This document shows, piece by piece, positions 7,911-47,465 of a DNA stretch of 64,000 nt. The notes under the pieces are model-generated. The model did not search any database, was not told the origin of the DNA, and saw only the letters and a list, made by a program, of their open reading frames with translations. Origin of the DNA: Adineta vaga (taxonomy: Eukaryota > Animalia > Rotifera); NCBI GenBank assembly GCA_021613535.1, contig CP075497.1, positions 7,316,001 to 7,380,000 on the forward strand, read 5' to 3'. How positions within the stretch are numbered: the stretch's first letter is position 1; each line of letters begins with the position of its first letter. The translations under genes were made by a program, and so were the position numbers.

Positions 7911-9671
7911 TCATAGTCATCTACCCAATTGACAATATTATAAAAATGTAGTATCTCGACGGCAGTAAGCTAGAGGCACGAACTCGTTTAAGAGTATTCA
8001 TAGCTCATTAGGTAAACACAATGCATATGGTCCCGACTCAAAAGTTATTTGACAGTTGGTGCTCCCCCCCCCCCTCAAGAGTATACACACACATGCCTAA
8101 GATGATGAAAGATACAAAAGATGATTCATAGTCAATCAGAAACTTACACAAAATTTAGTTTCTATAGCGTTTATAGTTCTTTGTTACATATCTATTGAAA
8201 TTCATCTATCTTCATACTATATAATTTTCAAATCATTGATACAATACCAAAGATTTATTTGACAAAAGAGGTGTTTATCGAACTAAAGAAAATAAGCAAC
8301 CAAACCGTATTCTTTTTCATATTATTTGCATTTTCATCTGCGATATCAGTCATTTAACTGTAACGAACTTACAAAAAGTCTTGAGTATTTCATAGTATAA
8401 ATAATACAAGAACTACGATGAAAATTTAAAAGCAAGACAATAATCATAAAGAGAAAAAAGCTACGAATCTTTTTCTTTTTCGTTCTTGACAAAATAAAAG
8501 AGAATTGTTTATTTAAATCATATGCATACTTATACAACAAATATCATTCCGTTTTCAATTTTTTCAGTTGTCATGGTACTTTTACTTTTCTCTTCTACTA
8601 TCTCGTTCAGCATAGAACTCAAATAATGAAATGAAAAGAATTCAAAAGGAAGAAACAGACATTGATACAGAGCTGACTTTTATGTACTTATCTTTCACTG
8701 GAACAGTCTTTTTAGTTTACAAAAGAGAAAAAATGATATTTCAATACTTCGAAGTATATGAGAAAAAAACAATACGTTTAATGTCAACTCGAGAAGAAAA
8801 AGAGAAAAAAGAATAAGAATGAAGATAAAATTTTTTTAAATAAAAAGTATAGGAGTAAAGCAAGTGAGAATTATATTATTGACGACAATATGAGATCGGA
8901 TGTTTAGTAATCAATCTGAATTAGCGTGGAGAGGTAATAAAAAATATTCAACAATTCGAAATAAAGAATTTTATCAGATTGTTGAGCACCTTAAGCACAT
9001 GGAATGATGGATTCGTTTGCATAAAATAAAATGGCTTCAATTATGAATATCGGGTAGATAAATCATTTGTGACATTACATGAAGATATATAACAATCCAT
9101 GCGAATGTTTGCTCGTTCGTCGAGCGACTACCTTTTATTTGGATATAGATAGAATGACTATTTAACTAGTGTAATATACGTATATATTTACATTTGAAAA
9201 CAAAGAAAAGAAGAAGAAAGGATACATCGATACAATAGTAAATAATACATATCTTTATCTCATTAAGAGGGAACAATGATAGATCATAGGGTATATTAAT
9301 GACGTTTTATTTGTTTTCATTAACTTAAGATTATGTAGTAATAGTAACAGAAAATAGATAAGATATTTGCAAATTTATTGAGTAAAATGAAACTTCTCTA
9401 TCGAATAGAATTCGTCTAGTAATCATTTTCAGTTTAATTTCAACTATATATATATATATATATTTGTTGAAAAAAGACTATTACAGTTGACATTCGAAAG
9501 GTACGAACGGCAAAGAGAGAAAGAAAAGAAACCAATGTACCATTCATTAGTTGGTAAGCAAGGTGACTAATCATTGTTGTTCGAATGATGATGCAGATGA
9601 TAAGTGTTATCTATAAAACTGTGCTACTTTCCTTCACAATCGAATATCATATCGTTGTTATTTAATAATAC

Positions 9672-11558
9672 ATGGCTTTTTCTAATAATAAACAAGTTTT
9701 TGAATTAAACGCTGATTATTCTCTTGCATTAAAAGATGATTCAATGGAATATCTTAAAATGGAACTTTATCATAATCAAACATTGATTTCTCATGTTTCA
9801 TTAAATGATAACCAATGCTCGATGACTACACATTACTTGTGTGATGGAAGAAAAGAATTCTATGATTTGTTAATTGATTTACTCGGTACAACAGAATCTA
9901 GTATTCGATCTATTGATTCGAAATATTTGGAAATAGCATGTAACGTACATTTTGGTAGTCAGAAAACGTTTACTAAATTAAAGATATTTAAAATACAATT
10001 TATCTGTATTTCTCCTATGAATAATGACCAAAAAGATGAAGTTTCTCTGGATCCATCGAATTGGAATGATGTTCGTTCGTTAGGTCATCGAATTATGGAT
10101 GATATGATCGATTATTTACGTGATATTCGATTTCGACCTGTATGGCGTCAAATTCCATTAGAAATAAGGAGAACTATTGCAGACACTGATTTTCCTTTAC
10201 ATGGTCAATCAGCGTTAGAAGTATATGATGAAATATGTTCAAATGTACTTCCTTATCCTGTCGGCAATATTCATCCACATTTTTGGGGTTATGTTCAAGG
10301 AACTGGTTCAACAATAGGTGCATTTGCAGAACTAATCAGTGGAACAATGAATACAATGTCATGGGGCGGTCATCAATCGAGTATTTACATTGAACGACAA
10401 GTCTTATCATGGTTAAAAGTATTAATGGATTTTCCTAATGATGACACAAGTTCAGGTGTTTTAGTAAGTGGAACATCAGTTGCAACAATTATAGCAATGG
10501 CTATAGCTAGGAAAAAGTTTTCTAATCGAATAATGAAAGTCTATTGTACTAAAGAAACACATAGTTGTATTATGCGGGCATTAGATCTATTAAATATTGG
10601 CAAAGAAAATTTAATATTTATTCCAACTAATTCCGAACGACAGATCGATTTGAAGGTATAGTAAACAACTGCTTAGTCAACAGAATAATTCTATTTTCAT
10701 TCATTTTAGATTTTGGAAACAACGATTGATCCTCATTCATGCGGTTTCATTGTTGGTAGTGCAGGTACAGCTGGTACTGGTGCTATTGATGATCTTCAAG
10801 GTATAGCTACTATATGTATGAAGAGATCACATGATCTTTGGTTTCATATTGATGGTGCTATTGGAGCAGTAGCTCGTTGTTCCAAACGTCTCCGTTTATT
10901 ATTGAAAGGTTTTGAACATGCAGATTCAGTTGCATTTGATTTGCATAAATGGCTTTTTGTTCCATATGAATGTGGTTGTATTCTCATACGTGATGGTCAA
11001 TTACATAAATCAACATTTAGTCAACCACCTGCTTCCTATTTAACGTTAATGAATGGTGGAATAACGCCGAGTGAAGGTGAAGTCTTTTTTAGTGATTATG
11101 GTTTAGAATTATCTCGAAGTATGAAATCATTAAAAGTTTGGATGACATTAAAAACATATGGTATCGAAACATTTGGACAAATTATGGAACAAAATGTTGA
11201 TCAAGTGAAATATTTTACACAATTACTTCAACAACATTCGAATCAATTTCAAATCTTAGTAACAGGTCCTTTAAATATCGTTTGTTTTCGATATATTGCA
11301 TCTCAATCAAATATGATTGATTTGGAATTGTTGAATCGGTTCAATAGACAATTGTTGGTTACGATTCAAGAACGTGGTATTGCTGTGGTATCACCAATTG
11401 TATTTGATAGCGAGATATTTGGATTGCGAATGTGTATTACTAATCATCGTACGAAAATGTTTGATATGGATAGATTTATGACACAATTAATTGAATTGAC
11501 TAATGAATTTTTGAATTTAGAAGAGTATTTATCTATACAAAAGTTTATTTCGAATTAA
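9672..11558 (+). CDS. Group II PLP-dependent amino-acid decarboxylase (bacterial-type aromatic/DABA decarboxylase-like) with an N-terminal extension
   Basis: Two exons separated by intron 10656-10709. Motifs: HPHFWGYV, SGVLVSGTSVA, GTAGTGAIDDL, WFHIDGAIG, AFDLHKW (PLP lysine), PYECGC, ELSRSMKSLKVW, LRMCITNHRT. Confidence 0.92.
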
Positions 11559-17861: not shown

Positions 17862-19313
17862 ATTCATTGAATGTTGCATTTCTTTCGTTTTTTTTACTAT
17901 TTGATTTAGTTCGTTCAACCTACTTACATGATATTGTTAAAAATCAGATTAACATTTTTTTCTTCTTCTTTTGACAATGATTATGTGATTCTCTTGTTTT
18001 CTTTATGCTTTGCCATGCAACTATTGATCAGTGTTTTGTTTTATACCTTATATGTGCTCAAGTTTTTTAAGCTTATTTGGTTAACTTATATAAAGACTGT
18101 TTGCTTCATTAAACGTTTGTTGAACTAGATTAAACAGATTTAGGATTGAAACAAAATAGATATCAGATGTTGGAAAATATAATTTTGAGGAAACAAAAAA
18201 GGGTCGGAACGCGCAAGCAGCTTAACTTGATGCCTGATGTTATGGCGAAAATTGCTAATCATTGAAAGATCGGCAACTACGAAGTATTTGTGAAAGTCTC
18301 TGCAAAGAAAGTTTTGTTATTTTTTTGCTTTTTTGTAAGATATTGCTACCTTTTATGATTTTTTCATTATTACAACTGAATAATACGAAGTAACTGACTC
18401 GACACCAGCCGACCACCATTTACTTACTGAACGTGCGTACAATATATGTTGAAACGTTTTGATGTGGTGCAATAACCCGTAAAACAATGAGTGGTAAGAA
18501 AAAATAATTTTTCTTCACAACTCACTTACATAACTCCGTCTTATTCTATGCAATTTGAAATCAATTGATGAAAGAACAATATTATTTTTGTAGTTTTTCT
18601 CTCAGAAAGAAAATTCATTTGCGAAAGTCGTTCTGTTTTGAGATAATCGGAAGAATTGATTTTACGAGTGATCATTATTTCACTCTATTATAATTTGGAA
18701 TATGTAGATATCTTCCATACTTATTCCAATACTGAAATAAATAAGTACGAAGCTGTTTTTCTGCGGACAAAAACGCAACAGGCATGAACGTGAATATTAT
18801 CAATTTATATTATATGATGCAAAACAAATTCTAGCTAGGGGAATATACTGATTAGGTTTAGTTTTCATTTGAAACGTGTACATATTTAATAAATTCATAT
18901 TCGAATGAACCTGAATCGAAAGGCAAGGCAAATATATGATGTTTTTGATAATGAATGCTTATTGGTTTGAAATAAGTCAATAATAAGCTCAATGATATCA
19001 GCGACATTGCTTCAACTTAATTGGTGAGGTAAATCTACGACATCTGTTGAATTTTTCTCTTTTTCTTTATGATCCATTGGTCATCAGTGTAACAGAAAAT
19101 AAAAAAAAAGAAAATAAACAAAAACATTAACTAAACTTTTTATCCTTAAAATTATATCGAATATTAACTTGTAATTGATTATTTGTTTGAATTTAATAGT
19201 GTGTTACGAAAAGACTTTGTTTTGAATGAAAATATCAAAGATTTCTCTTGAATATGTTTTTTTCTCTTTAGATTCATTCATATTGAATAGTTTCTGCTAG
19301 CAAACTGTATCAG

Positions 19314-22300
19314 ATGTCGCAGGTGAACAACCGCGGTGTCGTCAACAAGCGGTTGCGAATATCCTCAACAGGCGCCTTTCGTTCGCATGAGAACCAGTCG
19401 TCATCATCGTCAATGAATGTCGCTCAATCTCAATCAAATTCATTTGGTTTATCCGTTGATGATGAAACAGAATTATCAGCAGATTCCATCAAAGACCAAT
19501 TAGATAGTGTTGATGATATTGTTACACAACCAATTATTGAAGTACCAACTAAACGTCTATTACATTTAAAAGAACTTGGTGGGAATTTATTTGTTTCATC
19601 ATCAACAAAAATCTATTCTAAAACTTTACAAAAACTAATTGATCGTGTTTTATTTACTAAATCATTAAACAATGATGTCAATACGAATATATCCGATGCT
19701 CATGTTTTTGAACGTGTACTTGCACGTTCTGATGATAGTGATGCATATTCAACATGTACATCTTTAGCGCAACCAACACCAGCAACCATTCTTTTACTTG
19801 GTTCAACAGCATGTGAACATGCTTTTGCTTGGAAATTATCACAACGTCGAAATTTTAAAATCTATTGTTCACCAGCAAATAGTGGAATTCATTTGGATCA
19901 TCCATCGATAATGATTACTAATATTTTTCAAACGGATAAAGATATATTAGATTTTGTTGATGGAAAAAAAATTGATCTTGTCATTGCATTAAATAAACAA
20001 TTTTATTATGAAGAACTTGAAGCCCAATTAGGTGAACGTGGTGTACATTATCTAGGTTGTTCAGTTGATACATTAGCTTTAAATGATGATCAATTAAATG
20101 CTAAACAATTTATGATAAAACATAAAATACCCACATTAGATTGGATTCAATGTTCAACATTCGATGAAGGAGAAAAATTCTTGAATCAGTAAGAAAATGA
20201 TTGTATTGAAATAGAAATCATTGTTTTTCCTTTCTACAGATATCCAGATCAACAACAATGGATTATTCGTACAATTAATGAAAATAAAAAGATTCATTGT
20301 CAAACACGTGATGAATCTTTACAAACACTGAAAGATGTATTTCAGGTAATAGTCATTTTCAGACGTCGATTGTATTATATTTCTTAATCGAATTTTGATT
20401 TAGAATCATTTATTTGGTGAAAACAATCAATCCATAATTATTGAACTTGGTTATTCCTTAGACAATAGTCACATATGTACACTTTATATTGTTAGTGATG
20501 GTGATGGTGACTATACTCAATTATCTACAATCGAATCAGAATCATCACCTTCTGGTGCGTATGGTCCAAGTCCATATTTAACAGCCAAACAATTATCATT
20601 TATTCGTCGACGTATTGTTGAACGAACATTACGTTGTTCACCATCGATTCGGCACATTTTTGGTTTTCGATTACTTATTCAAGGTACAAATTATAATGAA
20701 ATTAAATTACTCGATTATAAAGCCACATTGGAAGAACCTGAAGGTGAAGTACTTTTATCTCTATGTGAACCTGAAACAATTCTTCAATATGCACTTGATT
20801 TGCCATCTGTACCAATTCTATCGTTAACAAGTAAAAAACGACGTGTTCATTGTGTCAATATAGCAATAACATCAAAAACACATTTATTGACAATTTCAAA
20901 TAAGATTCTTTTAACAGCAATTAAAAATAATAAAGTGAAAATCTTTCATAATCAAACACATTTGAATACAGATGGAGAAAGAGATGGTTTAATAACCAAT
21001 GGAGAAAGAATTCTAAATGTACTTGGTTACGGTTCAACATTACAAGAAGCACAATTGCATTCTGTTCTCGCCTGTGAATATATCAAACAACATGCAAATG
21101 TTAATGATCTATCCTTTAAATCGGATATTGGTTCTCAAGCTATCGAATGGTAAGAAACATTACTCTTATGATATTTTGTAATATTGACTGTGAAGGCATT
21201 TTCTATCGTCTCGGTTGAAAAATATCTGAAACTAAATGACAGAATATAGTTGAAATATCGTATTTTTACTAGGTATAAAATGCATGGTGATGTGCATAGT
21301 TCCAAAGTACATGGTCTCACAAATGGGAAAAAGAAAAAACTCAAAAAGATGAATTCAAATTCGATATCATCCAAGAAAACGAATCATAGCTCAATTATAA
21401 GTCGTCAAAACGCTAAAAATACCAAAGATATAGATAAAGAAAGTGAACATACCAGTGATGATGGTGATGATAATGAAGACGACGATGATGAACATGAGCC
21501 AATGGATTTTGAACGTGCATTTGGTTCTACATTTGATAGTTTCAAAATTGAACATAAAGACATATATCAAAATAATGGTACTCTCAATGGATTGAATACA
21601 TTTGAAGGCGATTCCTTTTTTGATCTCACAAATAAGATTGATTTGAAAAATTTCACTCAACCAGTACTTGTTTCATCAACAACCAATTTAAATCCTTTAG
21701 CTGCTGTAAGTTACTTTTCTAAATGAACATTTCATTACACATTTTTATGCTTTTAGTTATTCAATTTAAATGATGGAAATATGAATGATAGTCAAACAAT
21801 ATTTGAATATCTTGGTCATGAATTAGCTGTTCGTTCTGCTAATGATCTTATCTGTGCTCGAGCATTATATGTTCAATGTTGTTCATTACCGACAACATCT
21901 TCTGAACGGTCTATTCAACGTTTTTATCATGGACTTGAACAAGCATGTCAACAATTAAATTGTACATTTCTTCAAACAACTTCGATTTCAGCATCATCGT
22001 CATTTAATGCATTATGTACAGGTGTATGTAATCGAGAATTGTTAACATTAAATAATGATATGAAAAATACGTTAATCAATGAAGGTGATTCATTGTTGGG
22101 TCTTCGTTGTAGTTTGGGAACAATAAATAGTCATGGATATGTACAATTAAAAGATTTATTTCAAAAGAAAAATGTGCATTTGAATGATATTTTACCATTT
22201 CGAAATAATGATGGAGATGAAGAAACATTTTTCTCATTATTATTACAAAAATCATTAATCTTAACATCAGATTTAGTTGCAATCATTAATGAACTGATTT

Positions 22301-23750
22301 TAAATCGAACAATTAAAGTTATACGATATTTAAAAGGTTTAGATATTGATACATTTGAATTATTTATTCATTCTAGTTTATTTAGATAATGGTTTGGTTA
22401 GCACAATTGAATCATTACTTGGATCATCGATTGGAACATTGACCGTACAATTAAATGGACAACAATGGCCAACTATGCCACCAATTTTTACATGGATTTA
22501 TCAACATGTAAGCCTGATTTTTTAAATCATAGAGCACAGTAGTGAAGAAAATTGATGACATTCTTTCAAATCATCGATTCATTTTGCTTTGATATTTTCA
22601 GAGTGGTTATAGTCAAGATGAAATGTTTGAATATTTCAATTGTGGTATTGATTATATACTCATCGTTGATCATACGAAAATATCGATTGAAACTCTACTT
22701 CAAAAATTAACACAAACACATACGACATGTTTTCAACTTGGCACTTTTACTTCAACAAGTAAATCATTGAATTTATTTAAAAATATCGAAACACTTCTCT
22801 CCTAGATTCGACGCCTACACGTAATAAATCGGTTCGTGTACCTCAACAATCTCAAACACGTACTGTTCAATTACAAAATATTCTATTCAAATATCCCAAA
22901 CCTAATCTCATTGCAAATAATACAAGTTCTGTCGTAATTAAAGATCGAATGAAACAACCCGTTGCTAATGATAAAACACGTTGTGCTGTACTTATCTCAA
23001 CGAATGGTAATATACATATATATATATATCGGAAAAAGATTCATTTATGTCATGTGCTTCTTTTAGATACAACATTACTTTCGCTTCTTGCTTATTCAAC
23101 TTCAACAATTGATTGTGCATTTGAAATTGTTCTTGTTCTTTCTACATTAGCTAGTTTATCTGATATAGCTCATGTAAATGAATCATATCCATCGGTTGTA
23201 ACAAAAGTGATTCAACCAAAAAAATATGCTGCAAGAAACTATGATTTAGTATAATTGAATTTTTCTTGAAAAACAATTCTAGAACATTGCTTCTTCGTCT
23301 ATTTAGGATCAAAAAATCGATGATGAACTACAATTTCATGGCTGTGAATTAGTTATTCTTGATCGTTATGCATGTCGTTTATCACCATCATTTATTCAAG
23401 CATGGCGAGGACGTTTACTAAATATCTATCCATCCTTATTACCATCATTCCGTCATAGTACATCACCTATTCGTGATGCTTTACAAGCTGGTGTTCGTAT
23501 AACAGGTGTTACAGTTCATTTTATTGCCGAATCAGATACAGATACAGATGGGCCCATTATTGCTCAAGAAAGTATTCATATAACACCGATTGAAAATGAA
23601 ACACAATTGGAAAATCGTTTACGTACACTTGAACAACAGTTATATCCAAAAGCAATTGATATGGTTGCATCCGGAAAAATTGTTTATCATGCAAAAAAAC
23701 GTTTTGGAAAAGTAAATATGACTCCGATACTTGGATCGTCTGCTTATTAA
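19314..23750 (+). CDS. GART: Highly divergent trifunctional GARS-AIRS-GART (PurD-PurM-PurN) homolog, probable pseudoenzyme
   Basis: Domain order: GARS (LLLGSTACEHAFAWKLSQ, AKQFMIKHKIPT, TNGERILNV, DIG), then AIRS (PVLVSST, NDLI, EMFEYFNCGI), then GART (CAVLIS, LLNIYPSLLPSF, GVTVHFIAE, GPIIAQE). Exons splice without stops to TAA at 23748-23750. Confidence 0.88.
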
Positions 23751-24226
23751 ACTTGGACTTTGTTCGATTAGACATTGATGTGTAGACATGTGTACTATTT
23801 GTTTTTGGAAATAGTGAAGTTAGTCTTTTTTTTCTGGTTTTGTTGTAATTCTGTTGTCTTGTTTAAAGAAAAAGGAAACAAAACAATACATATATGCATA
23901 GATTTATTATCGGAAATAGAACGAAATGATTTCATGATTTCAATAAACTTATCTATGAATTTGTTGCATAAATAGAAGAATAGTAAGATTTTAGATCAAG
24001 TTCATATCAGCAGAAATTATTAAATACTTTCGTTGATCAACTCTGATGATTGAATGTATACTTCATTTGTCTTTTGAAATAATTTTTCGATGATCAATGG
24101 GAAAATAATTATCCATAATTGTTATCAATTTTCTGTCTATTATAAGCATTATAATTTTAAAACTCAGCAAGTCACTACTATATATACAAACCTTTTATTC
24201 ATTTTTATCTATAAAAAAACAAGCGC

Positions 24227-24806
24227 AATGATGGTTTCATTCCATCCTGTCTGTTTTTTATTACTTGTAGCAATCTACGTTGATGGATTCAAATTGAGTA
24301 AAAAGAATCATGTTAGTAAACTGAACGATTATTAACTTTGTTTTTTGTACCTTAGGTTGTACAACTGGTTGTTTCTGCAAAGTGGGATATGTGCGTGAAG
24401 TCCTTGTGTTAGACATAGTCAATGTGTAGGACAAACCGATATTCTGAGATGTAAAGATAATGAAAATATATCAAGAATGTGGTTCGGCATGTCCATCAAC
24501 ATGTCAAGATTTTACTTATCCAATATCGAGGAATCCATATGTGTGTATAGCCGTATATAAATCTGGTTGTTTCTGTAGGGAAGGATACTATCGTACTAAA
24601 AATGGGTAATGTGTCCTTCCAAAACAATGTTGTACAGGCAGTAATGAGAACTATACAGAATGTGTTTCTACTTGTGTTAACACATTTAATTCTGTATCGC
24701 AGGTTTGTGCACAACAGTGTATCACAGGTTGTTTTTGCCCATGATTAGATTTTGTTCGCAAAGACAATCGCACTGCTAGTCCTTGTATACGTCGTGATCA
24801 ATATTA
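24227..24806 (+). pseudogene. Secreted multi-TIL (trypsin-inhibitor-like Cys-rich) domain pseudogene
   Basis: A signal-peptide exon (MMVSFHPVCFLLLVAIYVDG) is followed by TIL repeats (GCFCKVGYVR; YQECGSACPSTC..SGCFCREGYYR; NENYTECVSTC..CITGCFCP). These are broken by frameshifts near 24400 and 24465, in-frame TAA (~24607) and TGA (~24742), and Cys-to-Tyr/Phe changes. Confidence 0.82.
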
Positions 24807-25644
24807 ATTCATATGATGAAGAAGACATTAAACATATTGTCATTCTTTCAATTGAAATAAACAAATGAAGCGTGATTGAAGAAATTCTTTGACAAATAAT
24901 TATTCTATATTTATGACATTTAGTAGAAAACCCATATAAATACTATTCTCTGATTCATATTGTTTTCGATTTTGTTACTCTTTTGATAATAGTTATACGA
25001 ATCTACGCGTAGAAATATTTGTTAATTTTGGTAATTGCTTCGATGATCGTTGAATCATTATTAGATGGTTTGAAGTATACATTCATCAAAACACATTGAT
25101 ACGTTATGCACAATATTATTCTATCGATTGCATCATGAATGTATCACGAGAACTAAAAGGTAAAGTAACGTACAATGTTTTGACATGTATCTGATTTAAC
25201 TACAATCGTTTTTTTATCTATCATTTATTAATCGTATTGAAGAACGAGATTGACGATTTTACAAATACGATAAAAGTTTGTACTTACAATCCTATTGGTG
25301 ATTTGTTCTTTGCACAACAATATCTTAATCGACTACTAATTTGTATCGTCAATACATTTGATTCTTTGTTCAATGACATACGTCATACACGATGATGTAC
25401 TCGTATCATCTCTTTTCGTTTCGTTTAATCGACAGATCTTATTAAAAATGAACGATGAGTGCGTTTTTGTTATTCTTTTTATCGTTTCGCATCGTTAAAC
25501 AAAAGAGACAAATCCAGTTTACCTGGTGAAATCATCCAATGACGTTATACTATACCTTATGTAACAGTAAGAAGATATAAAATATATCTATTTCGTATAA
25601 ATATAATTTGTCATTGTATTATTTATTCATATTATAAACAAACA

Positions 25645-28600
25645 ATGTCTACCAGGTACAAAAAAAAGAAACGTTTTCTTTTGCGTTAAAAAATGATCTT
25701 GGTATTTTTAGCCCTGTGCCATCAGATCGAGTTCCTACGATAGATGAATCGTTAGAAGCCGATACGATTGTTTCTGTCACCCATGAACAACCAAAACAAA
25801 GTTTTACACGTCCTTTGAGAACTAAAAATGCTCATCGATCAGTTCCGACATTTACATCGATGTTAAGAACACCATCAGCAAGTGGTACTCGATTTTTTAG
25901 CAAGTAAGTAGATTTCCTAAAATCAAATCAATAAAAATGACATGGATTCTGTTTCAGTAAAATGCAACGAACGATAACAAATCGTCAGAAGGCAGAAATT
26001 CAATTAGAAAGTATTCTTAATGATCCTGAAGCGTCATTACCTGCATTTGCACGTCGTACTAGTAATAATTTTGATGACGAAATTTCTATTGAAGATGCAT
26101 CAAAACTACTCAATACTCAACCATTTATTATCAAACGTCTTGTTAATTCATTAAAATTTTCAAAGAATAATAAAGACATCGATGTTTTGGATAAAAGTCA
26201 AATACAAAAACTAACACGTGTATTAAATAGTACAATGGATGTTCGTGCACTTTTATTTTTCATGATGCTTGATGAAAGTGGAGATGGTTATGTTACTGAT
26301 ACTGAATTATCACAATTTTATGAAGAGTATTTCAAAGGCTTAAAAACATTTGATAATGAACGTTTACAAGAAGTTGATCAAGTATTACGTGAAAAATTTC
26401 ATCTTCATGATGCAAGTGAATATTTTCGATTCAATGAATAAATAATAAAGTTTTGTTTTTTGTTTGATAGAAGTCACGAATTGATTTTGAAGAATTTTAT
26501 TCGATTGTTACTAAAGATTCAATATTACTTGAATCTTTATCACAATTTACTGTGGATCCATCATGGTTTATTAAATCGGCATCACCAAAGCCAGAAAAAC
26601 AAACTATATTACAACGAATATTTGCGAATATATGTTGGCAACAATCTATTTATGAACAACAGAAAAAAAAATTAACGATGGATTATATTAAAGATAATAT
26701 CTCTCGTATTTTTGTTTTGATTCTTTATTTATTAGTCAACTTAGCATTACTTCTCTATGTTGTAATCTATCGTTCAACTGTAACAAAATCCAATGGTTTC
26801 GTCGTATTTGCACGAATCGGAGGGATGTTATTGAATTTCAATTGTGCGTTTATCATTGTACTAATGCTTAAACAAACAATTTTATTGATTCGAACGATTA
26901 AATTATTAAGAAAACTAATACCAGTTGATGATCATATTGATTTTCATCGAGTAGTTGGACGTGTCATTGCTGGTTTAGCTATTATACATACTATTGCACA
27001 TATGGCTAATTTTGGAATCATGACAGGTAAGATATAAAACAGTCCACTTTTCGATAACTTGATCCTATGAGTATGAATTATTTTATATGTTTTAGAACAT
27101 TCATGGGGAACTTATATGGTAAGTTTGGTTTCAATTTAGAATTCATTTTTCGAAAGAAATTTTTTAGTTTACTACTACTCCTGACATTGGATGGGTTGGG
27201 GGTTTTGCACCATTAAGTGGTGTCATTTTATGTATTCTTTTGGCTATTATCGTTATTTGTTCAATGCAATGGATTCGACGAGGTGGTCATTTTCAGGTAT
27301 GAATTATCATAGATATTAATAGATGATTTATTTTCTTTTATGTTAAAAGATTTTCTATTGGACACATTTATTATATCTTCCATTCTTTGTTTTTCTTATT
27401 GTTCATGCGGGCAATTTTTGGGTAAGTCTATTCTTATTCGATTAATTATTTCTTATATGAGTATGTTTAGAAATGGATTATTGGTCCTTTATCTTTATTT
27501 TTAATTGAAAAGGCCTATTCAATTTTAAAACGTTATTCTTCACATAGTGGTCTAACCTATGTTCGATCAATAACGATTGAACAATCTAAGGTGATCAGTT
27601 TAAATATTCATCGACCAAAGAATTTCACGTAAGATGATTTTACGAATTTTTGTCTTACAATCGTTTGATTGTCCGTTTGTCTAGTTTTAGACCTGGCGAT
27701 TATCTCACGATCAATATACCTAGTGTTGCATTGTATGAATTTCATCCATTTACGATTAGTAGTGCACCAGAAAATATTCATTATCTTACAATTCATATAC
27801 AAGCAGTAGGAAATTGGACTAAACGAGTTTACCAATATTTTCTTGATATGTCTGCGCAAGATGCGGAAGAAAATCAATTGAAAATTTTTCGCGCTGATCT
27901 TGATGGTGATCGCGAGCCGCTGAAATAGAAGAAAATAATCGAATTCCTATTGCTGATGCTAATAGCAGTGGATCGGATAGTGATACCAGTGATGATGATG
28001 ATGATAATACTTCTTCAAAAATTAAAGCAAGAGCAATGAAACGAGAACGTGTTATTATCAATGGTCCTTATTCTTCATGTGCACGCTATGTTTTTGATTG
28101 TAAACATGTTGTTTTGATTGGTGGTGGTATTGGTATTACACCTTATGCATCAATATTATCAAGTCTTATGGCACAATTTCGTGCATCACGTATTGTATGT
28201 AAAAATTGTGAACATATTAATTATTATAGCCGAGGTTTGATTGAAAATCGTCGTTTGAAAAAAGTCGATTTTATTTGGGTAAATCGTGATCAGAAAAATT
28301 TCGAATGGTTTCTTAATTTGCTTCGGCAATTTGAACAAGAACAAGAATATTATCTAGCATCGAATTCCGATGAAAAACGTTTTCTTGATATTCATTTATA
28401 TTTTACGGAAATTAAACATGATGAAAATATTGGTAATGCTCCATTAAATGTTGCAACAAAAGTTTGGGCAGAAATAACTAGAACAGATATATTCACAAGT
28501 TTACAATCGAAAACCCATATTGGTCGACCGAAATGGGAAGAAATATTTGATCAATTGGTTGCCGGTGAAAATGCTTCGACAGCGAATGATGTTAATGTAT

Positions 28601-28686
28601 TCTTTTGTGGACCTTCAACAATGGCACGCGCAATTCAAAACCATTGTGCAGAATATCGCTTTCGATTTTATGAAGAAAAATTTTAA
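25645..28686 (+). CDS. NOX5: NADPH oxidase 5-like (EF-hand NOX), with one apparent frameshift near 27914
   Basis: EF hand DESGDGYVTDTE; ARIGGMLLNFNC; haem histidines (DFHR..IHTIAH; WTHL..IVH); FAD site HPFTISSAP; NADPH site GGGIGITPYASIL; FFCGP; terminal FYEEKF. Confidence 0.92.
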
Positions 28687-32109: not shown

Positions 32110-32792
32110 TTAGTTAACAGGAAGAATTGTTTCACGAGCAGGAAAACCAAGATCAAATGGTTCATCATCGGCTGGTGCATGATATGTATTAATAACTGTA
32201 TAACGATCGATACCTGCATCATTTTTTGTTGAACCATGTACAAGTTGATCAGAAAAAAAGATTCCTGTACCACGTTTCACGCTACATATAACAATATCAT
32301 CTTTATTGATATCATTATTGGCTATTTGAAAAACAAATTCACCATTTGGTAAAGCTTCATTGATCATTGTCCACTTCTTTTTATGACTACCACGAACGAC
32401 AGTCAATGTACCATTATCGCCAGTGGCATCATCGAATGGAATCCAAACTGAAAGTTTCGATCGAGTATTTGTCCAATAGAAACAATCCATATGCCAAGGT
32501 GTTGCAAAAGTTTTGTCGGCTGTTTTAACCACGATTTTATCACTTAAAAACATCACACCATCAGGCATAATCTTTTCTAAGATGTCTATTATATGTGGAT
32601 GTTTGTGAAATTGCTGATAGAGAGGACTGGCAACTGATGCATGTACAAAGACGGATCATCGGGTTTTGCTTTTTCATTTAAAATCTTCTTCGCTTCTAAT
32701 TTTAATTCATCACATTCGTCATCAGTAAATAAATCCGGAATAATAAGAAATCCTTCACGTTCATAACAATCAAGTATATTGTCAGATGACAT
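32110..32792 (-). CDS. PhyH-family Fe(II)/2-oxoglutarate dioxygenase, intronless, split by a 1-nt frameshift near 32656
   Basis: YEREGFLIIPDLF start; TPWHMDCFYW (HxD), SVWIPFDDA..DNG.L.VVRGSH, VHGS..N...DR. The two ORFs join if one base is added at ccc gat ga^ tcc gtc. Confidence 0.85.
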
Positions 32793-38535: not shown

Positions 38536-39720
38536 TTAATTCATTGACAGTAAAATATTTAAATCATTTTCAGACATTTGAATTAAGAACTCGTCATGAA
38601 TTCTTTGCCGATTTTGATTTCGTTGTAGAAAGTCATCATGTCTTTTCAATGCTAAACGTGTAAATTTAACTATTTGAGGTTGTAATTCATAACGATATTG
38701 TTTGAGTAAGTGTTTTCGTTCTTGTTCATTCGATACATAACTTAAATGTGCATTATCAATTAATTTTTCATTCAAATATTCAGATGATATATCTCCAAAT
38801 GTTTGAGATATGATTGTTAGAAGATCTGTTATTCGATCGATATCAAGAACTTTAGATTTGAGTAAATTGATGATTAAGTCTCGATTAGAATTAATATCAA
38901 GTAGAAGAAATTCTTCTAAAATCCAATTGAATTGAAGGAGAAAAAAATCAGTGTTCTTTTCAGCTTGATATGCTAATTGATTAAATAGTTGCGAAAGAAG
39001 AATCCATTGATCTTGTATATCTTCTACTTGTAAAGTCATAGTAGTATCAGCGGTTATTGATGATAAAAGAGAATTTAGTTCGTGAAGAAGATTTGTTATA
39101 TCATTCATTTTTGTTTGAGAATTTTGAAATTTTGTTAAACTTTCATGAACTAAAATTTCACTTTTTCTGAGTAAATCAGGTAATTTTGTATTGATTGTCG
39201 TTTTATTTCCTTTCTTAATCAAAAGAAGAATTAATTTTAAATGAGTAGGGATATTTTGTAAGTGGATTTGAATACGATTGAAATCTTTATATATCTCGAT
39301 CAGAATATAACGTATTTTGTCAGTTAATTGAGAAATAGTTTGACGAAATGAATGAGGAGGTTTTATATATATCGTACATTGATTGGAATTGTTGAGAAGC
39401 GAAAAATCTGTTCTTGATGTATGAATGAGAAGAATATTTAGATAATTCGTAAGAATAGCATTGGTTAAAACATAATCTTGCCATTGATCAATCAAAATCT
39501 GATCATTTAGCTTCTTTTCAATTGTACTTCGAGTAGATATATTCTTCTTACTAACGTTATAGATATCATTCCTGATTGGATGTACTGTCATATAATTGTC
39601 CAGTGTTTCTCCAAGGATTGAACAGAATAAATTTAATAGAATCAAAGAAAATATACCAACTATATATGATTAAATATTGAAAATTTTATAATGAAAATAA
39701 AAAATGAAATACTTACTCAT
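38536..39720 (-). CDS. Secreted alpha-helical protein, cluster member A (short form)
   Basis: ATG A|gtaagt micro-exon at 39720 splices to give signal peptide MIGIFSLILLNLFCSILG. Core: QWQDYVLTNAILTNYLNILLIHTSRTDF..SFRQTISQL..IPTHLK..IQDQW. Confidence 0.8.
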
Positions 39721-39881
39721 GTTTAACATTATCAAAGGATGCGAAATTTATAAAGAAGAATATCGTAGATATATTCTAAAATCAAATAATACATACGATA
39801 TATGTTTTTGATTAAAAGAAAACTTCATTAATGATAAAACATGAAGATGAGATATTAATCTTTTTCTTTTTATTTATTTCT

Positions 39882-41133
39882 TCAACCGAGAAGATCTACT
39901 AAATCATTGATAGATATACTAGCTAAAAGTTTGTCATAATCTTTTTTTCGATTTCGATCACGTCGTAAGAATTTTGTATGACGATCTAACGCAATTCGTG
40001 CACTTTGAATAACCTGTGGTAATAGTTCATATCGAAATTGTTTCAAATATCGTTTTCGAATATCTTCATTCGGTAAGAGAAGTAAATGTCCATTGCCACC
40101 TATCTGTTCATCAGTATATTGAAATGATATGTCAGTATATGCTATTGTAATAATGCCAAGAAGATCAGATGTTTGATCAATTTCAATTATTTTCGGTAGA
40201 AGTAATGCAATCATAAAATCACGATGTGAATCAGCTAATGTCATTTCAGGTCGAATGAATTCATTTAAAATCCAATTGAATTGAAGTAAAAAAGCATCAC
40301 TGGTTGTTTTTGCTCGTTTTGATAATTCGATAATAAGTTCAGTTAAACATGTCCATTGAATTTTAATATCCTTTATTTGCCAAGAAATTATTAAATCAGA
40401 TGTTGCACTAGTTAGTAAATGATCGATTTCAGTCAAAAGATTTAAGACTTGTTGAAAAGCTTTTCCTGGTTTACTCAGCACAACTAAGCTATCATTTACT
40501 ATTTTTTCTATCTCCTTGAATGAATCTGGAAATGACATTAGAAGAAATTCGAAGGGTGCAATTTTCATATATACCAGTATATTTTTCAACTCAGTTGGAA
40601 CACGTTCCATACCTATATGAACACGATTTAAATCTTCACGAGCACCTCCGATGGCAGTACGCATCTCTAAAGCTAATTGAGAGATTGTTTGACGAAAAGA
40701 TCCAATATTTTTTATACATTTGACTGAATAACCCAATGGAATGATAAAAGCGAAGTCTTGACGTGAAGCAAGTACCATTAAACTATTCAGATAATTTACC
40801 ACGATTGGATTTGCAAGAACCCAATCTTGCCATTCTTTAACTAAACGTTCATTATCAATCTTCTCTTCAACTACATTCCTTGATACAATATCTAAACGCA
40901 ATTGCATATGAAATTTGTTCTTACTTTTCCATAACATTCATTTAAGTGATTTTATTGGATATTACCTGTGAAATAATCTATAGCAGGATCAATAGCACTA
41001 TTTATAACCATCGATTTGCCCACTATAAAATGTTGATTATTAGCTATAAGCCAAATTAATATAACTATAGAGTTATAAATCTGTCACTGTTCTTAAAAAT
41101 AGAGTTGATATACTTACTTAGAAAGGTTCGCAT
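39882..41133 (-). CDS. Secreted alpha-helical protein, cluster member B (short form)
   Basis: Spliced N-terminus MRTFLIILIWLIANNQHFIVG. Core: EWQDWVLANPIVVNYLNSLMVLASRQDF..SFRQTISQL..VPTELK..IKIQW. Confidence 0.8.
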
Positions 41134-41271
41134 ATTTTATGATTATGAAGACAAATAATATCTACAATATGAATAATTTTATTAGTTTTCTTTTTCAAAC
41201 TTCAAAAAATCATATCCACAAATTTTATTTTATCATTCAAAAACAGTTTTCCAAAGTTTTTCTACGTTGTT

Positions 41272-42496
41272 TTAGTTATTGCTTCTAATTGAAGCAGCAA
41301 GAACACTTTGCAAATAAGTCGAATATTCTGCATGTCGTTCAGGGCTTGTTTCTGCAAATTGATTTTGACGTTCTTGAGCAAGCCGTGCTACTTTCACCGA
41401 CTGTGCAATTGTATTTTGCCACAATTGCCGTTGACTTGTTGCACGCGCTGATTCGCCGCCAAGACCAAGGTAATTATTGCTGACGGTTATTTGTGTTGCC
41501 ATATGATCTTGTGAAATATCACTATAAGTACGTGCCATCATATCTAATAGATATGATGATTGATCAATCGCAATTGAAGCCGGAATAAGTTTATTGAGAT
41601 GATCTGAACGTTGTTTTTCAGTATCAAAACCCTTTTCTTTTTGTGCTTGATTAGTTGGATCAATAAAATTATTAATAACACTGCTTTGAGTAAGATCAGC
41701 TCGTTCTGAAAATTTTCGAAATAGTTTCACCAATAGATCCCACTGTGCTTTGATATCAGTAGCATAAGCGTTGGCTTCTGTCAAATAATCAACATCTTCT
41801 GCTGATGCAGATGATAATGTCGAGTCCAATAATTTAACAAGTTCTTCGAACCATGATCCAAGTGCAACAAAAAGTTCAAGAGTTGGTTTAGTAACAACCG
41901 ATCCTTCATTAGCAGCACGATCAACATTACGTAAAGTATAGGGTAGAAGTTTACTGAGAAGATCATTGGGAGCAGTTTGAATTAAAACCAAACCTGCTTT
42001 TATATGATCTGGAATTTGATCCATACTACTTCGAGTACGAATTAGATCATTACTAGCCAGTTTAAAAGCTGCTTGCATTTCTGCGGATATCCGAGTGAGT
42101 ATGCTACGTAAGGATTGAATATTAGGAAGATGTTTGACAATATATTCAGCAGGAGGAGTTAAAGCTTGATCTTTACGTGATACAAGTACCATAAATAAAC
42201 CGAGATAATTGACTACTGTAGGTCCAGCTAAGACAAGATCTTCCCATTCACGATCAACTTCGGGAGCCAATGTTGTGGTAGTTGTAGTAGTAGTCACTGT
42301 TGTGGTTGTTGTTGTAAGTTGTGCGGTAGTTGATTCTGTTGTTATGTCAAAACCATTAGTTGTATCAAAAGGAAAAGAGTAACTTGTACTGATGAATAGA
42401 ACGAAAAAGGTCAATAAAGTGACTAATGAATCTAATCATATCCAAATCAAAATTAAATCTTCAAGATCTACTGAAAGAAAATGTCAACTTACTCAT
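41272..42496 (-). CDS. Secreted alpha-helical protein, cluster member C (short form with Thr-rich linker)
   Basis: ATG A|gtaagt micro-exon gives MNSLVTLLTFFVLFISTSYS, then poly-Thr. Core: EWEDLVLAGPTVVNYLGLFMVLVSRKD..IPDHIK..IKAQW. Confidence 0.82.
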
Positions 42497-42595
42497 ATTA
42501 ATTGATTAAAGATCCTCACACTGTTGATAGATTAATTATGTAGTTTTTCTCTAGAGAAAGACTGAAAAAGTCGTTGTTAAACATGAACAGTATCT

Positions 42596-42620
42596 GTATA
42601 TATATATATATATATATATA
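42596..42620. repeat. (TA)n microsatellite
   Basis: Perfect TA run between cluster members C and D. Similar runs occur near 2363 and 9445. Confidence 0.8.
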
Positions 42621-43260
42621 TTGGTAGAAATATTTCTCTATTTATTTTTCATTACCAGAGGATTTGATTCTTTTTTCAATATCAGATGACTTGTATACGA
42701 ACAAATTATGTTTTAATGATTGTTTTTCGTTTAGAGATTAGTTTTCGTCGAAAATCAAAATTTAAATAATAGCAATTATCATTCACGGAAAATTTCGTAC
42801 TTCTTCGATTTCGATCATAATCCGACAAAGGAGCCATCTAAATTTCAATCTTTCAATATTCATGAAATTCATATAATTAATATCGATGTTTTTTTCTTCT
42901 ATTGATGATATCAAATATTCAATATGCATCTCAACAACAGCTGTGAAAATATTCATAATAGAGCAAAGGTTTCTTAGTTAAGCCCTTGTCCTGAAAAAGT
43001 ACTCGCAGAAAAGAAAATAATCTCTTGTACTGATATCTTTAGGGCATTCGTATCGATGACAAAATCACCTGTTTTTATCTTGAAGAGACATGAGGCATTA
43101 AAGCGTTAGATTTTCGTGGAAAGCTAAGCTTTATTTTTAGTCTATTGATCGAAAGATAGCAATTAAATGGTGTGATATCCTTAATAAAAATCAGCAATGA
43201 ATATTAGAAATTCTAATCTATCTACATAATTCGATTATTTATTCGAAATTCGAAAATAGT

Positions 43261-45231
43261 TTAACCAATCGAAACTTCTAAATCTTCCAGAGCTATTTTA
43301 GCTAAAAATTGTTCATATTCGTCTCGACGTTGTTTATTACGTAGACTATATTCATTTTGTCGTGCTTGAGCTAATTGAGTAATGCGTGTTGAAGTTAATG
43401 TAGTATTTGACGAAATAGATTTTAGATAAGCTGTTCGTTCAGTATCAGTTTGAAGAAGCAATAGTGTATTCATACTAGTAATTTGACCAATCATATATTC
43501 TGATGAAACATCATGGTAGGTTTTTGACATGACATAAAGTAAATGAGCACCTCGTTCGATTTCTTGGCATGTAATACTGAGAATTTCAACAAAGAGTTCT
43601 CGATCACTTGGATCCACCAATAAATTATGCTCTTGTGCTTCCTTCACAACACTAATCAATTCATGAACGATGACCTACGCAGATGAAACAAAGTACGGAT
43701 GATCATTTTACCTGATTTAATAATTATATTAGGTACCTGTTGTGTACTATCAGCTTGTACGGATAGCTTCGAAAAAAATTGAATTAAACGTCCCCATTGC
43801 TCTTTTATTTGATTCATTTGTAAGATCGATTCAATAAGTATATCAACAATTTCTTGTTCACTCATTCTATCTAAATCTAGGGCAGCAATTTTGTTAATAA
43901 TAGCCACAAGCTTTTGTTGTTCCATTGCTTGTTGTGCGGCAAAGTCGGCATGACGCTTTTCGGCTTCTTTTAATACTTGAAGCAAATGATTTGCTTTGGC
44001 AATTGCATTTTGTTTTGCTGTTTCAGCAGCTGCTAAGGCTGCATTCAGAGCAGCTTGATTATTATAGCATAGTCCTAATACGCATCCCAAAAGACGTATT
44101 GGTGCAGTGACTACGGCGACAACGGCTTGAATTATTCTACGAAAAATTTTCCTGAACCATCTACGAGCAGTTGGAATAGCATTGAATGCTTCTTGATATT
44201 CTTTACGCGCCTTTTCCATTTCACGTTTAGAATCTTCATATTGAGATTTGATAGAATTTATATTATTATTTAAATTAGTTTGGTCTTCTTTAGCTTTATC
44301 AATCTGTGATTGAATCTGTTGAACAACATTTGTTTGTCCAGAATGTGTGTTTGTATTTGCTTCAATAATTTCAGCAATAAGTTCTTGTAAGGATGTAAAT
44401 TTTTCAAAAGTTGTTCTTGCATCAGCAGCACTTTCATTAGCAATACGACCGATAGATTCTAATGCTTTTGGAAGCATGATTTCAATGAGCATGGGTGAAC
44501 CAGCAAGGACCAGTTTGAGAGCCGTTTTAACATGACTTGGCACTTGTTGCACATTAAGTTGAATACGATCCATAGCTGTATGTGCACCAATCAATGCTGA
44601 ATACATTGAACCTGATACTTGAGCAAGTGTTGCTCGAAAAGAATTTGGATCTTTAATATATTGAAATGTAAAATGCGGTGGACGAGTTAATGGAAAATCA
44701 CGTTTACTAGCAAGAACAAGAAGATTACCAATATAATTCACTGATAATGGTCCAGCAGTCATGAGATGAACCCATTCACTATCGATATTATCTTGTAATG
44801 CAAGTTGATCATCGAGTTTATCGTCGAAAATAACTTCGTACGGGTCATCTTCACTAGAGCGCGACAATGCACCTAGAACATATTTCAAAATCTATGATCA
44901 ATCTCAATCTTATTTTACTGAAAACAAAGCAACTTACCACCTAAAGTGTCATCACCACGTGATAATTGCATTAAAAATTCATCGTCACTCATTTGTGGAA
45001 TAGCATAAAGTTTCGTACGATCCATATTAATAATTTGTTGTATGAAAGGATCACTAAATGGATTTAATAATTTATCCGAAGGCAGAAAAAGTGTTGTTGC
45101 ACATATATGAGTTAGCATACCCATTGAATACAATAAACAGATCGAAAAAAGTACTAAATTAGAAATGTTATTCGTATCTTCAGTAAGAAATTCTATTTCT
45201 TTAAATCTAGTGACTTACATGTATTCATCAT
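43261..45231 (-). CDS. Secreted alpha-helical protein, cluster member D (long form with coiled-coil/hydrophobic hairpin)
   Basis: Four exons. Signal MMNTLLFSICLLYSMGMLTHICA. Core EWVHLMTAGPLSVNYIGNLLVLASKRDF..SFRATLAQVS. Insert contains RRWFRKIFRRIIQAVVAVVTAPIRLLGCVLGLC. The TQQ|VIV intron joins ORF 43261-43659. Confidence 0.85.
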
Positions 45232-45508
45232 TTTGATTATCAATAAAAAGGATATGAAATGTTGTTGTTTTTAAATCTCTGCATCTCTCATATATGAAGT
45301 AAAAATCACAACAGATGTATAAACAACAGAATTCGTCTCATTAATCACGCACTTTTTCGACGAAAAATATACCTCGTCTGATCGATGAGAACAAGAAACA
45401 TCAATGGCACCTGTTGTATATCACGCAATTCACCAGCTATAAAACGATTTGTCTAAACTGATGTAGTAATACAAGTTAGTTGTTCTATTTTACCAATCAA
45501 TCGTAAAG
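45232..45508. promoter_or_regulatory. Putative bidirectional promoter between long cluster members D and E
   Basis: 277 bp separates the divergent ATGs; TATAAAA at 45438-45444 on the + strand. Confidence 0.45.
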
Positions 45509-47465
45509 ATGCTTTATGGTAAGTATTCTTCTGAATGGATTGTTTATAAATGCTGTTTTTAGTTTATTTATATATTTTGATCATGAAGTTCTGGATTGGA
45601 ACATCAACATCTGTCCAAGCAACTGCTCATACTTTATTTATTGATCCATCAGAAGATCCATTTTTAGATCATTATATTGAAACTATTGCACATATGAGTA
45701 CCAAAGAAATCATGGCTCTTCCAAAAATGAATGATGACGCTGCAGAACATGGTAAGTACTTTTGTTTTCCTTACACAAACTGACTTGCTAATATTTGTCG
45801 ATTGTCAAATATATATTGTTTCGTTTTTAATAGGAGTTAAATTGCGTGTTGATACAAGTGTTTTCGATCCACTTCGTGACGATCAATTAAAACATCAAAC
45901 CGAAATCGATAAAGAATGGGAAACATTGATGGTATCAGGTCCCATTGTTGTTGGATATATGGGCAACTTGATGGTTCTTGCTAGCAAGAAAGATTTTCCA
46001 TTTCAAGCACCAGTTGGATATGTTTATCGATATATTAGGTGAGATAAAATAACACTCCATGTTTAGTATAGCTTTCTTTTCTTTGTTCATAGATATCCAA
46101 ACTCATTTCGTGCTACACTAGCACAAGTATCGTCAGATATGTATAATGCTCTGATGGGTGCGCATACTGCTATGGACGAGATCCAATTGGCTATTAAACA
46201 AGTTCCTACACATGTCAAAACAGCACTCAAACTAATTACTTCAGCAAAAGATGCAATGCTCAAATCATTACTTCCGGGCACATTAGAACGTATCGGAAAT
46301 TTAGCAACTGAAAGTGCAAATAAGGCTAATTCAACATTACTTCGTTTTAATCAATTACAAGATTTATTGGCGGAAATCATTGAATTAAGTGCTAGTACTC
46401 AATCCACCAACGAAGCTGATATCGAACGACTAAACGAACAACGAAAAAACTCCACCCTTGAACAAGAACGTTTAAAAGAAACTATTGAATCCATCAATAA
46501 ACAACATGATCAATCAAAAGCAAATCTTGAAAATGCGCGTAAAAAATATGCGGCAGCTATGGTAGATCTTTCGGCTTCATCATCACCTCAGATCATTGAA
46601 AGTGGAGGTTCTAAACATAATCTAGTGACTGTAGCTATTGGAATTGTATTTGATCCCATAAAAACAGTTGGTTGTTTACTCGGCAATTGTGGTAGTCCCA
46701 CGTATACTGTTGATAATACTAAATTTGAAAACGCTATGAAAATAGCTCAGATGGCTAAAGAAGAATTAGAACGGGCTGAACAAATCCAAAATGAACATTT
46801 TCTTCTTCAATTAGCCGAACAAAATGAATTAGCAAAAACAATGAATAATATGGCTATGTTAGATTTAAGTAAATTGAGTACAGAAGAAATCGTTCGTTTA
46901 TTAATTGAATTAGTTGATCAGATTAATTTAATCAAAGAACAATGGGCACGTATGATTCAATTTTTTTCCAAATTAGCTGCTCAAGCTAAAAGTACTCAAC
47001 AAGTAAGATCAGTATATTTTTTAATCTTGTCTTACATAGTTTTTATTTCAGGTTGTTGTCAAAGATTTCGTCGATGTTATTCAACAGGCTCAAAAAGACA
47101 ATTTATTAATTGATCCTTTTGATCGAGAATTTTTCATTGAACTATTAATACCTTCAGCAACAACAATTGAAAGTGGTGCACATCTTTTATATACTATGGC
47201 AAAAACATATTATGCAGTATCAAGTGAACATATGATTAATCAAATTGCAGGTATTGATAAAATGTTAATTTTACAAACAGATGAAGCACGACAAGCACAA
47301 CTTCAGATAGCATCAAATAATACTTTAAGTACTTCATTACAAATAACTCAATTAGCACAAGAACGACATGCACTTTATCTACAAGAAATGCAAAATCGTC
47401 AAGCAGAATATATAACTTATATCAACGATTCGATCATATTTGAACTTCAAGAAACTATTGGTTGA
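45509..47465 (+). CDS. Secreted alpha-helical protein, cluster member E (long form with coiled-coil/hydrophobic hairpin)
   Basis: Five exons. Signal MLYVYLYILIMKFWIGTSTSVQA. Core EWETLMVSGPIVVGYMGNLMVLASKKDF..YPNSFRATLAQVS. Insert contains LVTVAIGIVFDPIKTVGCLLGNCG. Shares the TQQ|V intron with D and ends ETIG* (D ends VSIG*). Confidence 0.85.

Follow-up and report, generated by a model that had tools for sequence, protein, structure and literature searches.

Introduction

The described systems closest to the locus analysed here are the trifunctional GART protein of animals, which carries GARS, AIRS and GART domains in that order, and the α-kleisin RAD21 (SCC1), which binds STAG (SA/Scc3) proteins. 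N106, H108 and D144 constitute the catalytic set of formyltransferases (available text of PMC4786211). Human SCC1(281-420) suffices for SA2 binding, and in the SCC1-SA2 complex I337 and L341, together with S334, belong to a pocket that recruits WAPL, SGO1 and CENP-U (available portions of PMC11182772 and PMC10279526). Bdelloid rotifers repair germline breaks during non-reductional meiosis (available text of PMC9710870).

The window, meaning the whole stretch of 64,000 nucleotides of Adineta vaga DNA that was analysed, consists of AT-rich eukaryotic DNA with short introns. It contains a gene in which a RAD21-derived segment is fused to GARS, AIRS and GART domains (Table 1). Proteins of this kind are annotated as GART or "uncharacterized" because the segment is not represented in Pfam. 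A STAG-binding segment of kleisin type is, to our knowledge, otherwise confined to the kleisins themselves. In the titles and opening lines of abstracts of openly accessible papers, no description of a RAD21-GART fusion was found. The main text of PMC6264785, on bdelloid DNA-repair genes, contains no occurrence of RAD21, cohesin, fusion, purine or GART, while its supplements may list the gene; the available portions of PMC12337341 and PMC8494291 do not mention the fusion.

Gene structure and expression

The nine introns of the chimera are all of the GT-AG type, measure 47-123 nt and, once removed, yield the 1281-aa ORF. The preliminary description had reported a stop-free frame over ~4.4 kb; the unspliced frame in fact holds 107 stops and is open only after removal of the nine introns. 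The NCBI protein I4U23_029544 corresponds to this gene model without its first 33 aa and is 100% identical to the window over exon 3. The domain order of a trifunctional GART gene, also proposed at the outset, was confirmed, whereas the reading as GART alone was not, the protein bearing a 157-aa N-terminal extension with the RAD21 segment and a linker of ~125 aa.

The gene is transcribed and spliced. Contigs of runs X13, X15 and X18, which come from two studies, lack all nine introns (four runs compared here; seven of the 24 listed runs examined in all), and two of the nine joints are spliced in run X20, which covers only part of the gene. Among the pieces listed for the DNA-like run X1, those covering 18900-21715 and 21717-23317 display no skip, a span that takes in the first eight introns. 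Run X18 has no coverage over 24144-25454. The RNA status of these runs is deduced from the spliced joints, no run being on record as RNA. The ohnolog of the chimera is also present in RNA-like runs, over exon 10.

Table 1. Position of the chimeric gene, its encoded domains and the neighbouring RAD21 gene in the window
Feature	Position	Strand	Basis or remark
RAD21-segment/pseudo-GART chimeric gene	19314..23750	+	10 exons, 1281 aa; Adineta vaga I4U23_029544
Chimera exons 1-5	19314-20188, 20240-20345, 20404-21149, 21273-21705, 21757-22336	+	gene model
Chimera exons 6-10	22386-22507, 22602-22758, 22806-23006, 23067-23248, 23307-23750	+	gene model
Basic K-R-x-R motif, aa 12-15, NLS-like	19347..19358	+	position 12 in 12/12 chimera proteins scanned
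RAD21-derived putative STAG-binding segment, aa 46-117	19449..19664	+	PDB match human RAD21 323-393
Pseudo-GARS (ATP-grasp), aa 158-575	19785..21147	+	Pfam GARS_N, GARS_A, GARS_C; ATP and substrate loops lost
Inserted linker, aa 576-700	21148..21645	+	alignments; stands in for N-terminal arm of canonical AIRS
Pseudo-AIRS (PurM-like), aa 701-1005	21646..22754	+	profile match human AIRS 2V9Y, E 1.5e-16
Pseudo-GAR transformylase, aa 1064-1262	22976..23690	+	Pfam Formyl_trans_N, E 1.9e-32
Intact RAD21 I4U23_029547, 656 aa	29284..31724	-	translation, 100% match; Pfam Rad21_Rec8_N and Rad21_Rec8

Family and selection

Among 1381 candidates, 26 relatives of the chimera were retrieved, of which 15 are named bdelloid proteins from Adineta, Rotaria and Didymodactylos; no chimera was identified outside bdelloids among the named matches. 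A quick tree resolves two ohnolog clades, each containing Adineta and Rotaria (support of 99 and 83), with Didymodactylos as the sister group of the pair; the stem that leads to the canonical animal GARTs has ~2.3 changes per column.

The identity of the chimera to canonical GART is low (23-38% by domain), as would be expected of simple decay or of an assembly chimera. Such an origin of the locus is extremely improbable, given that both ohnolog clades have intact spliced ORFs in Adineta as well as in Rotaria, the fusion lies in one frame in 7/7 metagenome loci, and single RNA-like contigs join the RAD21 segment to the enzyme domains. In addition, dN/dS (NG86) against these seven loci is well below 1, at 0.13-0.31 overall, 0.21-0.41 for GARS and 0.07-0.13 for GART, and synonymous changes make up 7 of the 11 differences seen within the species, where 22% would be expected (P 0.003). 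A dN/dS of about 1 without expression, which had been named beforehand as the mark of simple decay, is thus contradicted on both counts, and decay is excluded.

The RAD21-derived segment

The N-terminus of the single A. vaga chimera matches human RAD21 residues 323-393 in the PDB (E 7.7e-5), while a profile of the chimera family matches residues 318-393 (E 3.7e-7); the N-terminus of the Didymodactylos chimera also matches RAD21 (E 1e-6). Conversely, a profile of 12 RAD21s, 10 of them known non-rotifer sequences, aligns with the window protein over aa 46-129 alone (E 3.4e-15, in a 6-sequence database) and matches none of three canonical GARTs. Alignment of the segment with RAD21 gave shuffle z values of 9.9-23.6, and for 4/4 RAD21s the local scores exceeded all 1000 shuffles. 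Over its 72 residues, the segment shares 33-38 identities with 11 bdelloid RAD21s, 21-23 with two Brachionus RAD21s and 22-31 with those of eight other animals.

The homologous region falls inside the SCC1(281-420) fragment crystallised with SA2. I59 and L63 of the chimera are the equivalents of human RAD21 I337 and L341; the former is invariant in 15/15 chimeras and the latter is kept in 14/15, with Ile in one. At the position of pocket residue S334 the window protein has Ala56, and 12/15 chimeras have Ser. At the sequence level, the family displays the central STAG-binding segment with its pocket positions S334/I337/L341. The SMC-binding ends of kleisins are another matter, as Pfam detected neither PF04825 nor PF04824 in the three chimera proteins scanned (P0001, P0008 and P0376). 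Lacking Rad21_Rec8_N and the C-terminal domain, the chimera cannot close the SMC1-SMC3 ring. AlphaFold2 predicts disorder for aa 1-153 (pLDDT <50), with helices at 56-65, 79-87 and 103-119. An atlas search returned no usable match for the N-terminal segment, and only GART clusters for the whole protein. A STAG motif pattern matched no stretch in the genome contigs and one in the viral contigs; the latter match, on a phage-like contig, was dismissed as chance.

The segment is under strong constraint, with dN/dS of 0.09-0.12 in 6/7 loci (one is saturated; L003 and L004 are near-identical). Its identity to Didymodactylos is 74%, compared with 40-44% for GARS and AIRS, making it the best-conserved of the parts compared, a set from which the GART domain is missing. 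Within the chimera consensus, 18/32 near-invariant RAD21 positions are kept and 14/32 are changed; the changes include a two-residue deletion after GG, and the KRKR stretch that flanks the segment in RAD21 is not kept beside it. The stem branch of the segment is long (1.84 changes per column) and is followed by stasis. Together with the 14 changed positions, this long stem suggests that the specificity of the segment may have shifted. It could thus have been repurposed to bind another partner or the protein's own domains, within a scaffold unrelated to cohesin. The replacement residues are mostly fixed, as such repurposing would predict, and conservation of 82-90% extends to aa 118-157, past the part homologous to RAD21. 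We nevertheless regard repurposing as unlikely, since the homology coincides with the SA2-crystallised fragment and the pocket residues are kept, and since the segment is not packed on GARS-N in the AlphaFold2 model (aa 1-292 only folded).

The protein carries two basic elements. The K-R-x-R motif near the N-terminus is NLS-like. The inserted linker contains a lysine cluster, KKKK (aa 595-598), an acidic run and the conserved stretch EPMDFERAFG, and has pLDDT <50 in an ortholog model; KKKK is present in 11/12 chimera proteins and absent in Didymodactylos.

Catalytic state of the enzyme domains

Most motifs expected of the three activities are replaced, and every change that the preliminary description had listed for GARS, AIRS and GART was found in place. 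In the window, GARS displays GSTACEH at aa 163 and PANSG at aa 187, and has neither a VVKxxGLAAGKGV loop nor an NTGGMG loop. AIRS has SSTTNLNP at aa 710 and no GGETAE. The GART domain presents ISTNDTTL at aa 1070, LDRYACRL at aa 1152 and NIYPSLLP at aa 1173, and the equivalent of H108 is Tyr1175 (codon TAT, 23427-23429), so that the window lacks the complete N106/H108/D144 triad. Across the family, the Gly-rich, ATP-grasp and NTGGMG motifs of GARS, the GTDGVGTK, GGETAE and HITGGG motifs of AIRS, and the phosphate loop (Gly to Asp) and LAGFMRIL of GART are replaced in 13/13 bdelloid proteins.

The protein might still be catalytic, working as a weak GART or as a formyltransferase that uses a new acceptor. 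The Didymodactylos ortholog retains the whole triad, which indicates that loss of the His postdates the fusion, and the other orthologs still have acidic residues in their D144 loop. Residual activity is nonetheless very unlikely, considering that His is changed to Tyr in 12/13 proteins and Asn to Ser in 3/13, within a triad that is itself the catalytic set, and that all 13 have lost the motifs of GARS and AIRS.

The earlier statement that structural residues are retained holds in part. Where 10 canonical animal GARTs do not vary, the window protein has the same residue at 32/53 positions in GART, 32/99 in GARS and 27/70 in AIRS. A model of the AIRS and GART domains of a Rotaria ortholog (mean pLDDT of 67) superposes on human AIRS (2V9Y) and GART (1MEO) with TM scores of 0.74 and 0.89, respectively, in the kind of superposition suggested beforehand; 14/28 rows of the alignment behind this model were canonical GARTs. 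With folds kept in the models, catalytic residues lost, expression and purifying selection, the chimera corresponds to the pseudoenzyme under selection that was originally proposed, and its motif losses are common to 12-13 of 13 bdelloid proteins.

Four orthologs share 84-94% identity over the GART domain, compared with 62% among canonical animals. Being more conserved than its canonical counterparts, the pseudo-GART domain is under new and strong constraint. This conservation, along with the retained PSLLP, E173 equivalent and fold, could reflect a metabolic sensor or scaffold in which pseudo-GART binds folate, a nucleotide or purine-pathway partners, and the segment only tethers the protein to STAG or chromatin. 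We find this quite unlikely in view of the phosphate-loop Gly to Asp change and the replacement of LAGFMRIL in 13/13 proteins. The selected non-catalytic role put forward in the preliminary description is supported, whereas the suggested scaffold or sensor overlooks the cohesin RAD21 segment, which points to chromosome biology rather than purine metabolism.

The AIRS region is predicted to homodimerise, with a score of 0.43 against 0.00 for the best of three controls, at least 67% of contacts agreeing between runs and pLDDT of at least 73. The mark applied was reached by 21/30 microbial pairs and 0/23 single chains and, for eukaryotes, by 17/29 pairs (7/16 in animals) and 0/30 single chains, although by only 1/7 pairs without an older solved relative. 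Because AIRS/PurM dimers have already been solved, the pass may reflect memory, and indicates likeness rather than binding.

No canonical bdelloid GART was present among 78 matches of 1545 candidates, a search that is insensitive, as it returned no named monogonont GART either; the missing bdelloid GART is therefore no proof of absence. Similarly, there was no rotifer among the 12 named of 19 non-chimera representatives (from 150 listed).

Origin of the fusion

An intact RAD21 gene lies ~5.5 kb downstream of the chimera in convergent orientation. It is spliced in RNA-like contigs and retains a STAG-binding segment, at about 30385-30094. In L004 and L006, both of the loci that reach far enough downstream, the chimera is likewise followed by NADPH oxidase and then by a convergent RAD21. 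At the ohnolog locus, I4U23_013567 and I4U23_013564 are three locus tags apart, as are 029544 and 029547. A PIWI gene was observed upstream in L006 and L007.

Given this linkage, shared by other bdelloids and by the ohnologous region, the simplest account is a local partial duplication of RAD21 onto GART, which we infer to have occurred before the Didymodactylos split and the divergence of the ohnologs, the neighbouring gene being the candidate donor locus. Identity favours a bdelloid donor, which the tree does not prove. The segment groups with rotifer RAD21 with support of 73/57 in a 76-column tree, and the AU test, on a tree from which Acropora was excluded for its long branch, rejects neither donor topology (p 0.43 and 0.34). 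Retroposition was considered, as the window RAD21 has an intron in the segment and the chimera has none, and was set aside as uninformative, the L004 and L006 RAD21 genes also being without that intron.

Proposed function

The predicted dimer and the conserved basic motifs make a nuclear, two-armed STAG binder the most economical model. The chimera is probably a nuclear, dimeric pseudoenzyme acting as a ring-less kleisin mimic that would bind STAG in competition with RAD21. The basic motifs would direct nuclear import, and the AIRS-mediated dimer would display two RAD21-like arms, whose segments would occupy STAG off the cohesin ring. Chimera and STAG together may rebuild the composite STAG-RAD21 pocket used by human WAPL, SGO1, CTCF and CENP-U. 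A bivalent off-ring platform of this kind could titrate STAG or the pocket regulators and thereby tune cohesin. An additional binding partner or ligand is likely for the pseudo-GART domain.

Several observations sit uneasily with this model. Constraint is as strong on the pseudo-GART domain as on the segment, which a pure decoy would leave unexplained; the altered RAD21 positions, the loss of KRKR, the intact Didymodactylos triad and a donor unfixed by the tree also weigh against it.

In a more elaborate and rather doubtful version of the STAG-binding model, the two-armed AIRS dimer would hold two STAGs, sponging WAPL or shugoshin or bridging STAG-bound chromatin, with this activity gated by a ligand-sensing pseudo-GART domain. 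Bdelloids would use it in their non-reductional meiosis and in the delayed repair of germline DNA, perhaps having given up canonical de novo purine synthesis in exchange.

If the STAG-binding model is correct, a housekeeping enzyme was recruited by fusion with a fragment of its neighbour and lost its active site stepwise. A lineage-specific candidate regulator of cohesin, present in both ohnolog sets, would offer a testable candidate for bdelloid meiosis and repair, a link that remains inferential. Should the segment lack STAG binding, the finding would be that of a conserved pseudoenzyme.

Comparison with known systems

The defining features tested set the chimera apart from both active GART and the kleisins. 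It shares with animal trifunctional GART (Pfam PF02844/PF01071/PF02843/PF00586/PF00551) the domain order, the predicted folds and the predicted AIRS dimer, and differs in the loss of catalytic and substrate motifs, the gain of the RAD21 segment and of the basic/acidic linker, and an identity of 23-38%. With RAD21/SCC1, as seen in SCC1(281-420)-SA2 (PDB codes 4PJU, 6QNX, 8K4D and 9J0A), it has in common the region homologous to 323-393 and the equivalents of I337 and L341. In contrast with that α-kleisin, it is without SMC-binding ends, and it occurs naturally, as a gene of its own built on an enzyme scaffold, rather than as an engineered subcomplex.

The nearest functional analogy is provided by the FGARAT-like tegument proteins of gammaherpesviruses, likewise purine-pathway homologs that act on chromatin factors. 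They are homologs of FGAMS rather than GART, and viral, so the likeness is one of analogy only; we know of no kleisin-derived segment in them. Members such as EBV BNRF1 and ORF75 have no detected enzyme activity and act on DAXX-ATRX (available text of PMC3213115), and BNRF1 destabilises SMC5/6 (available text of PMC8981113).

Cohesin-free pools of STAG exist in human cells (available portions of PMC10238091). These pools, and the CES-binding proteins WAPL, SGO1, CTCF and CENP-U, resemble the proposed system in being centred on STAG and its pocket. The latter proteins insert a Y/F-x-F motif into the pocket, whereas the chimera would supply its RAD21 half.

N-terminus of the chimera

The NCBI model of the chimera, I4U23_029544, lacks the first 33 residues of the protein, including a conserved KRxR motif; RNA-like contigs over the gene start at ~19270. 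S/T-Q sites at residues 2, 39 and 71, which are possible ATM/ATR sites, are repeated in most Adineta and Rotaria orthologs, all three being present in 9 of 11. A scan of chimera proteins did not find these sites in the ortholog from Didymodactylos, the bdelloid sister to both chimera ohnolog clades.

Gene neighbourhood

Gene order around the chimera is shared with other bdelloid chimera-bearing loci, the upstream PIWI/Argonaute-family gene recurring in L006 and L007 and the NOX5-like oxidase in L004 and L006. At L004, the STAG segment of the neighbouring RAD21 displays likeness to the C-terminal half of the chimera.

The repeats of the small cysteine-rich gene are similar to TIL domains; this gene had no cover in X18, one of three sequencing runs whose RNA-like contigs have all chimera introns spliced. 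A Pfam scan of four ORFs from the tandem cluster gave no match for three, and weak coiled-coil matches, with nothing else, for the remaining one. The decarboxylase and the PhyH dioxygenase are possible candidates for horizontal acquisition.

Features of the window and of locus L004
Feature	Position	Strand	Remarks
Pyridoxal-dependent decarboxylase	9669-11558	+	Pfam
PIWI/Argonaute-family gene	14276-~17600	+	ArgoL1 and Piwi Pfam matches; directly 5' of chimera
Chimera residues absent from NCBI model	19314-19412	+	
Chimera S/T-Q sites	19314-19530	+	
Chimera intron 3	21150-21272	+	Longest intron; immediately 3' of GARS; begins with in-frame stop
Cysteine-rich gene	~24229-24760	+	Small; secreted-looking; repeats
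EF-hand NADPH oxidase (NOX5-like)	~25960-28686	+	Pfam; between chimera and RAD21
PhyH dioxygenase	32110-32655	-	Pfam
Tandem cluster	38536-47465	both	~6 genes of 350-430 aa, related to one another, helical or coiled-coil
STAG segment of neighbouring RAD21	L004:12092-12328	-	More diverged

Comparison with animal GART

Several of the GART relatives retrieved carry the label "GART-like", and among the vertebrate proteins so named that were compared, at least one shows motif changes, listed as minor variants in the motif table. The amphibian and crocodile GART-like proteins (P0080, P0247/P0372, P0252 and P0253) are possibly independent GART pseudoenzymes.

Intron 3 is spliced out in the assembled contigs of the examined runs, and a short isoform comprising the RAD21 segment and GARS therefore remains an unproven candidate. 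Several database relatives of 573-579 residues terminate near this intron. Animal GART has a GARS-only isoform, of which these relatives are reminiscent.
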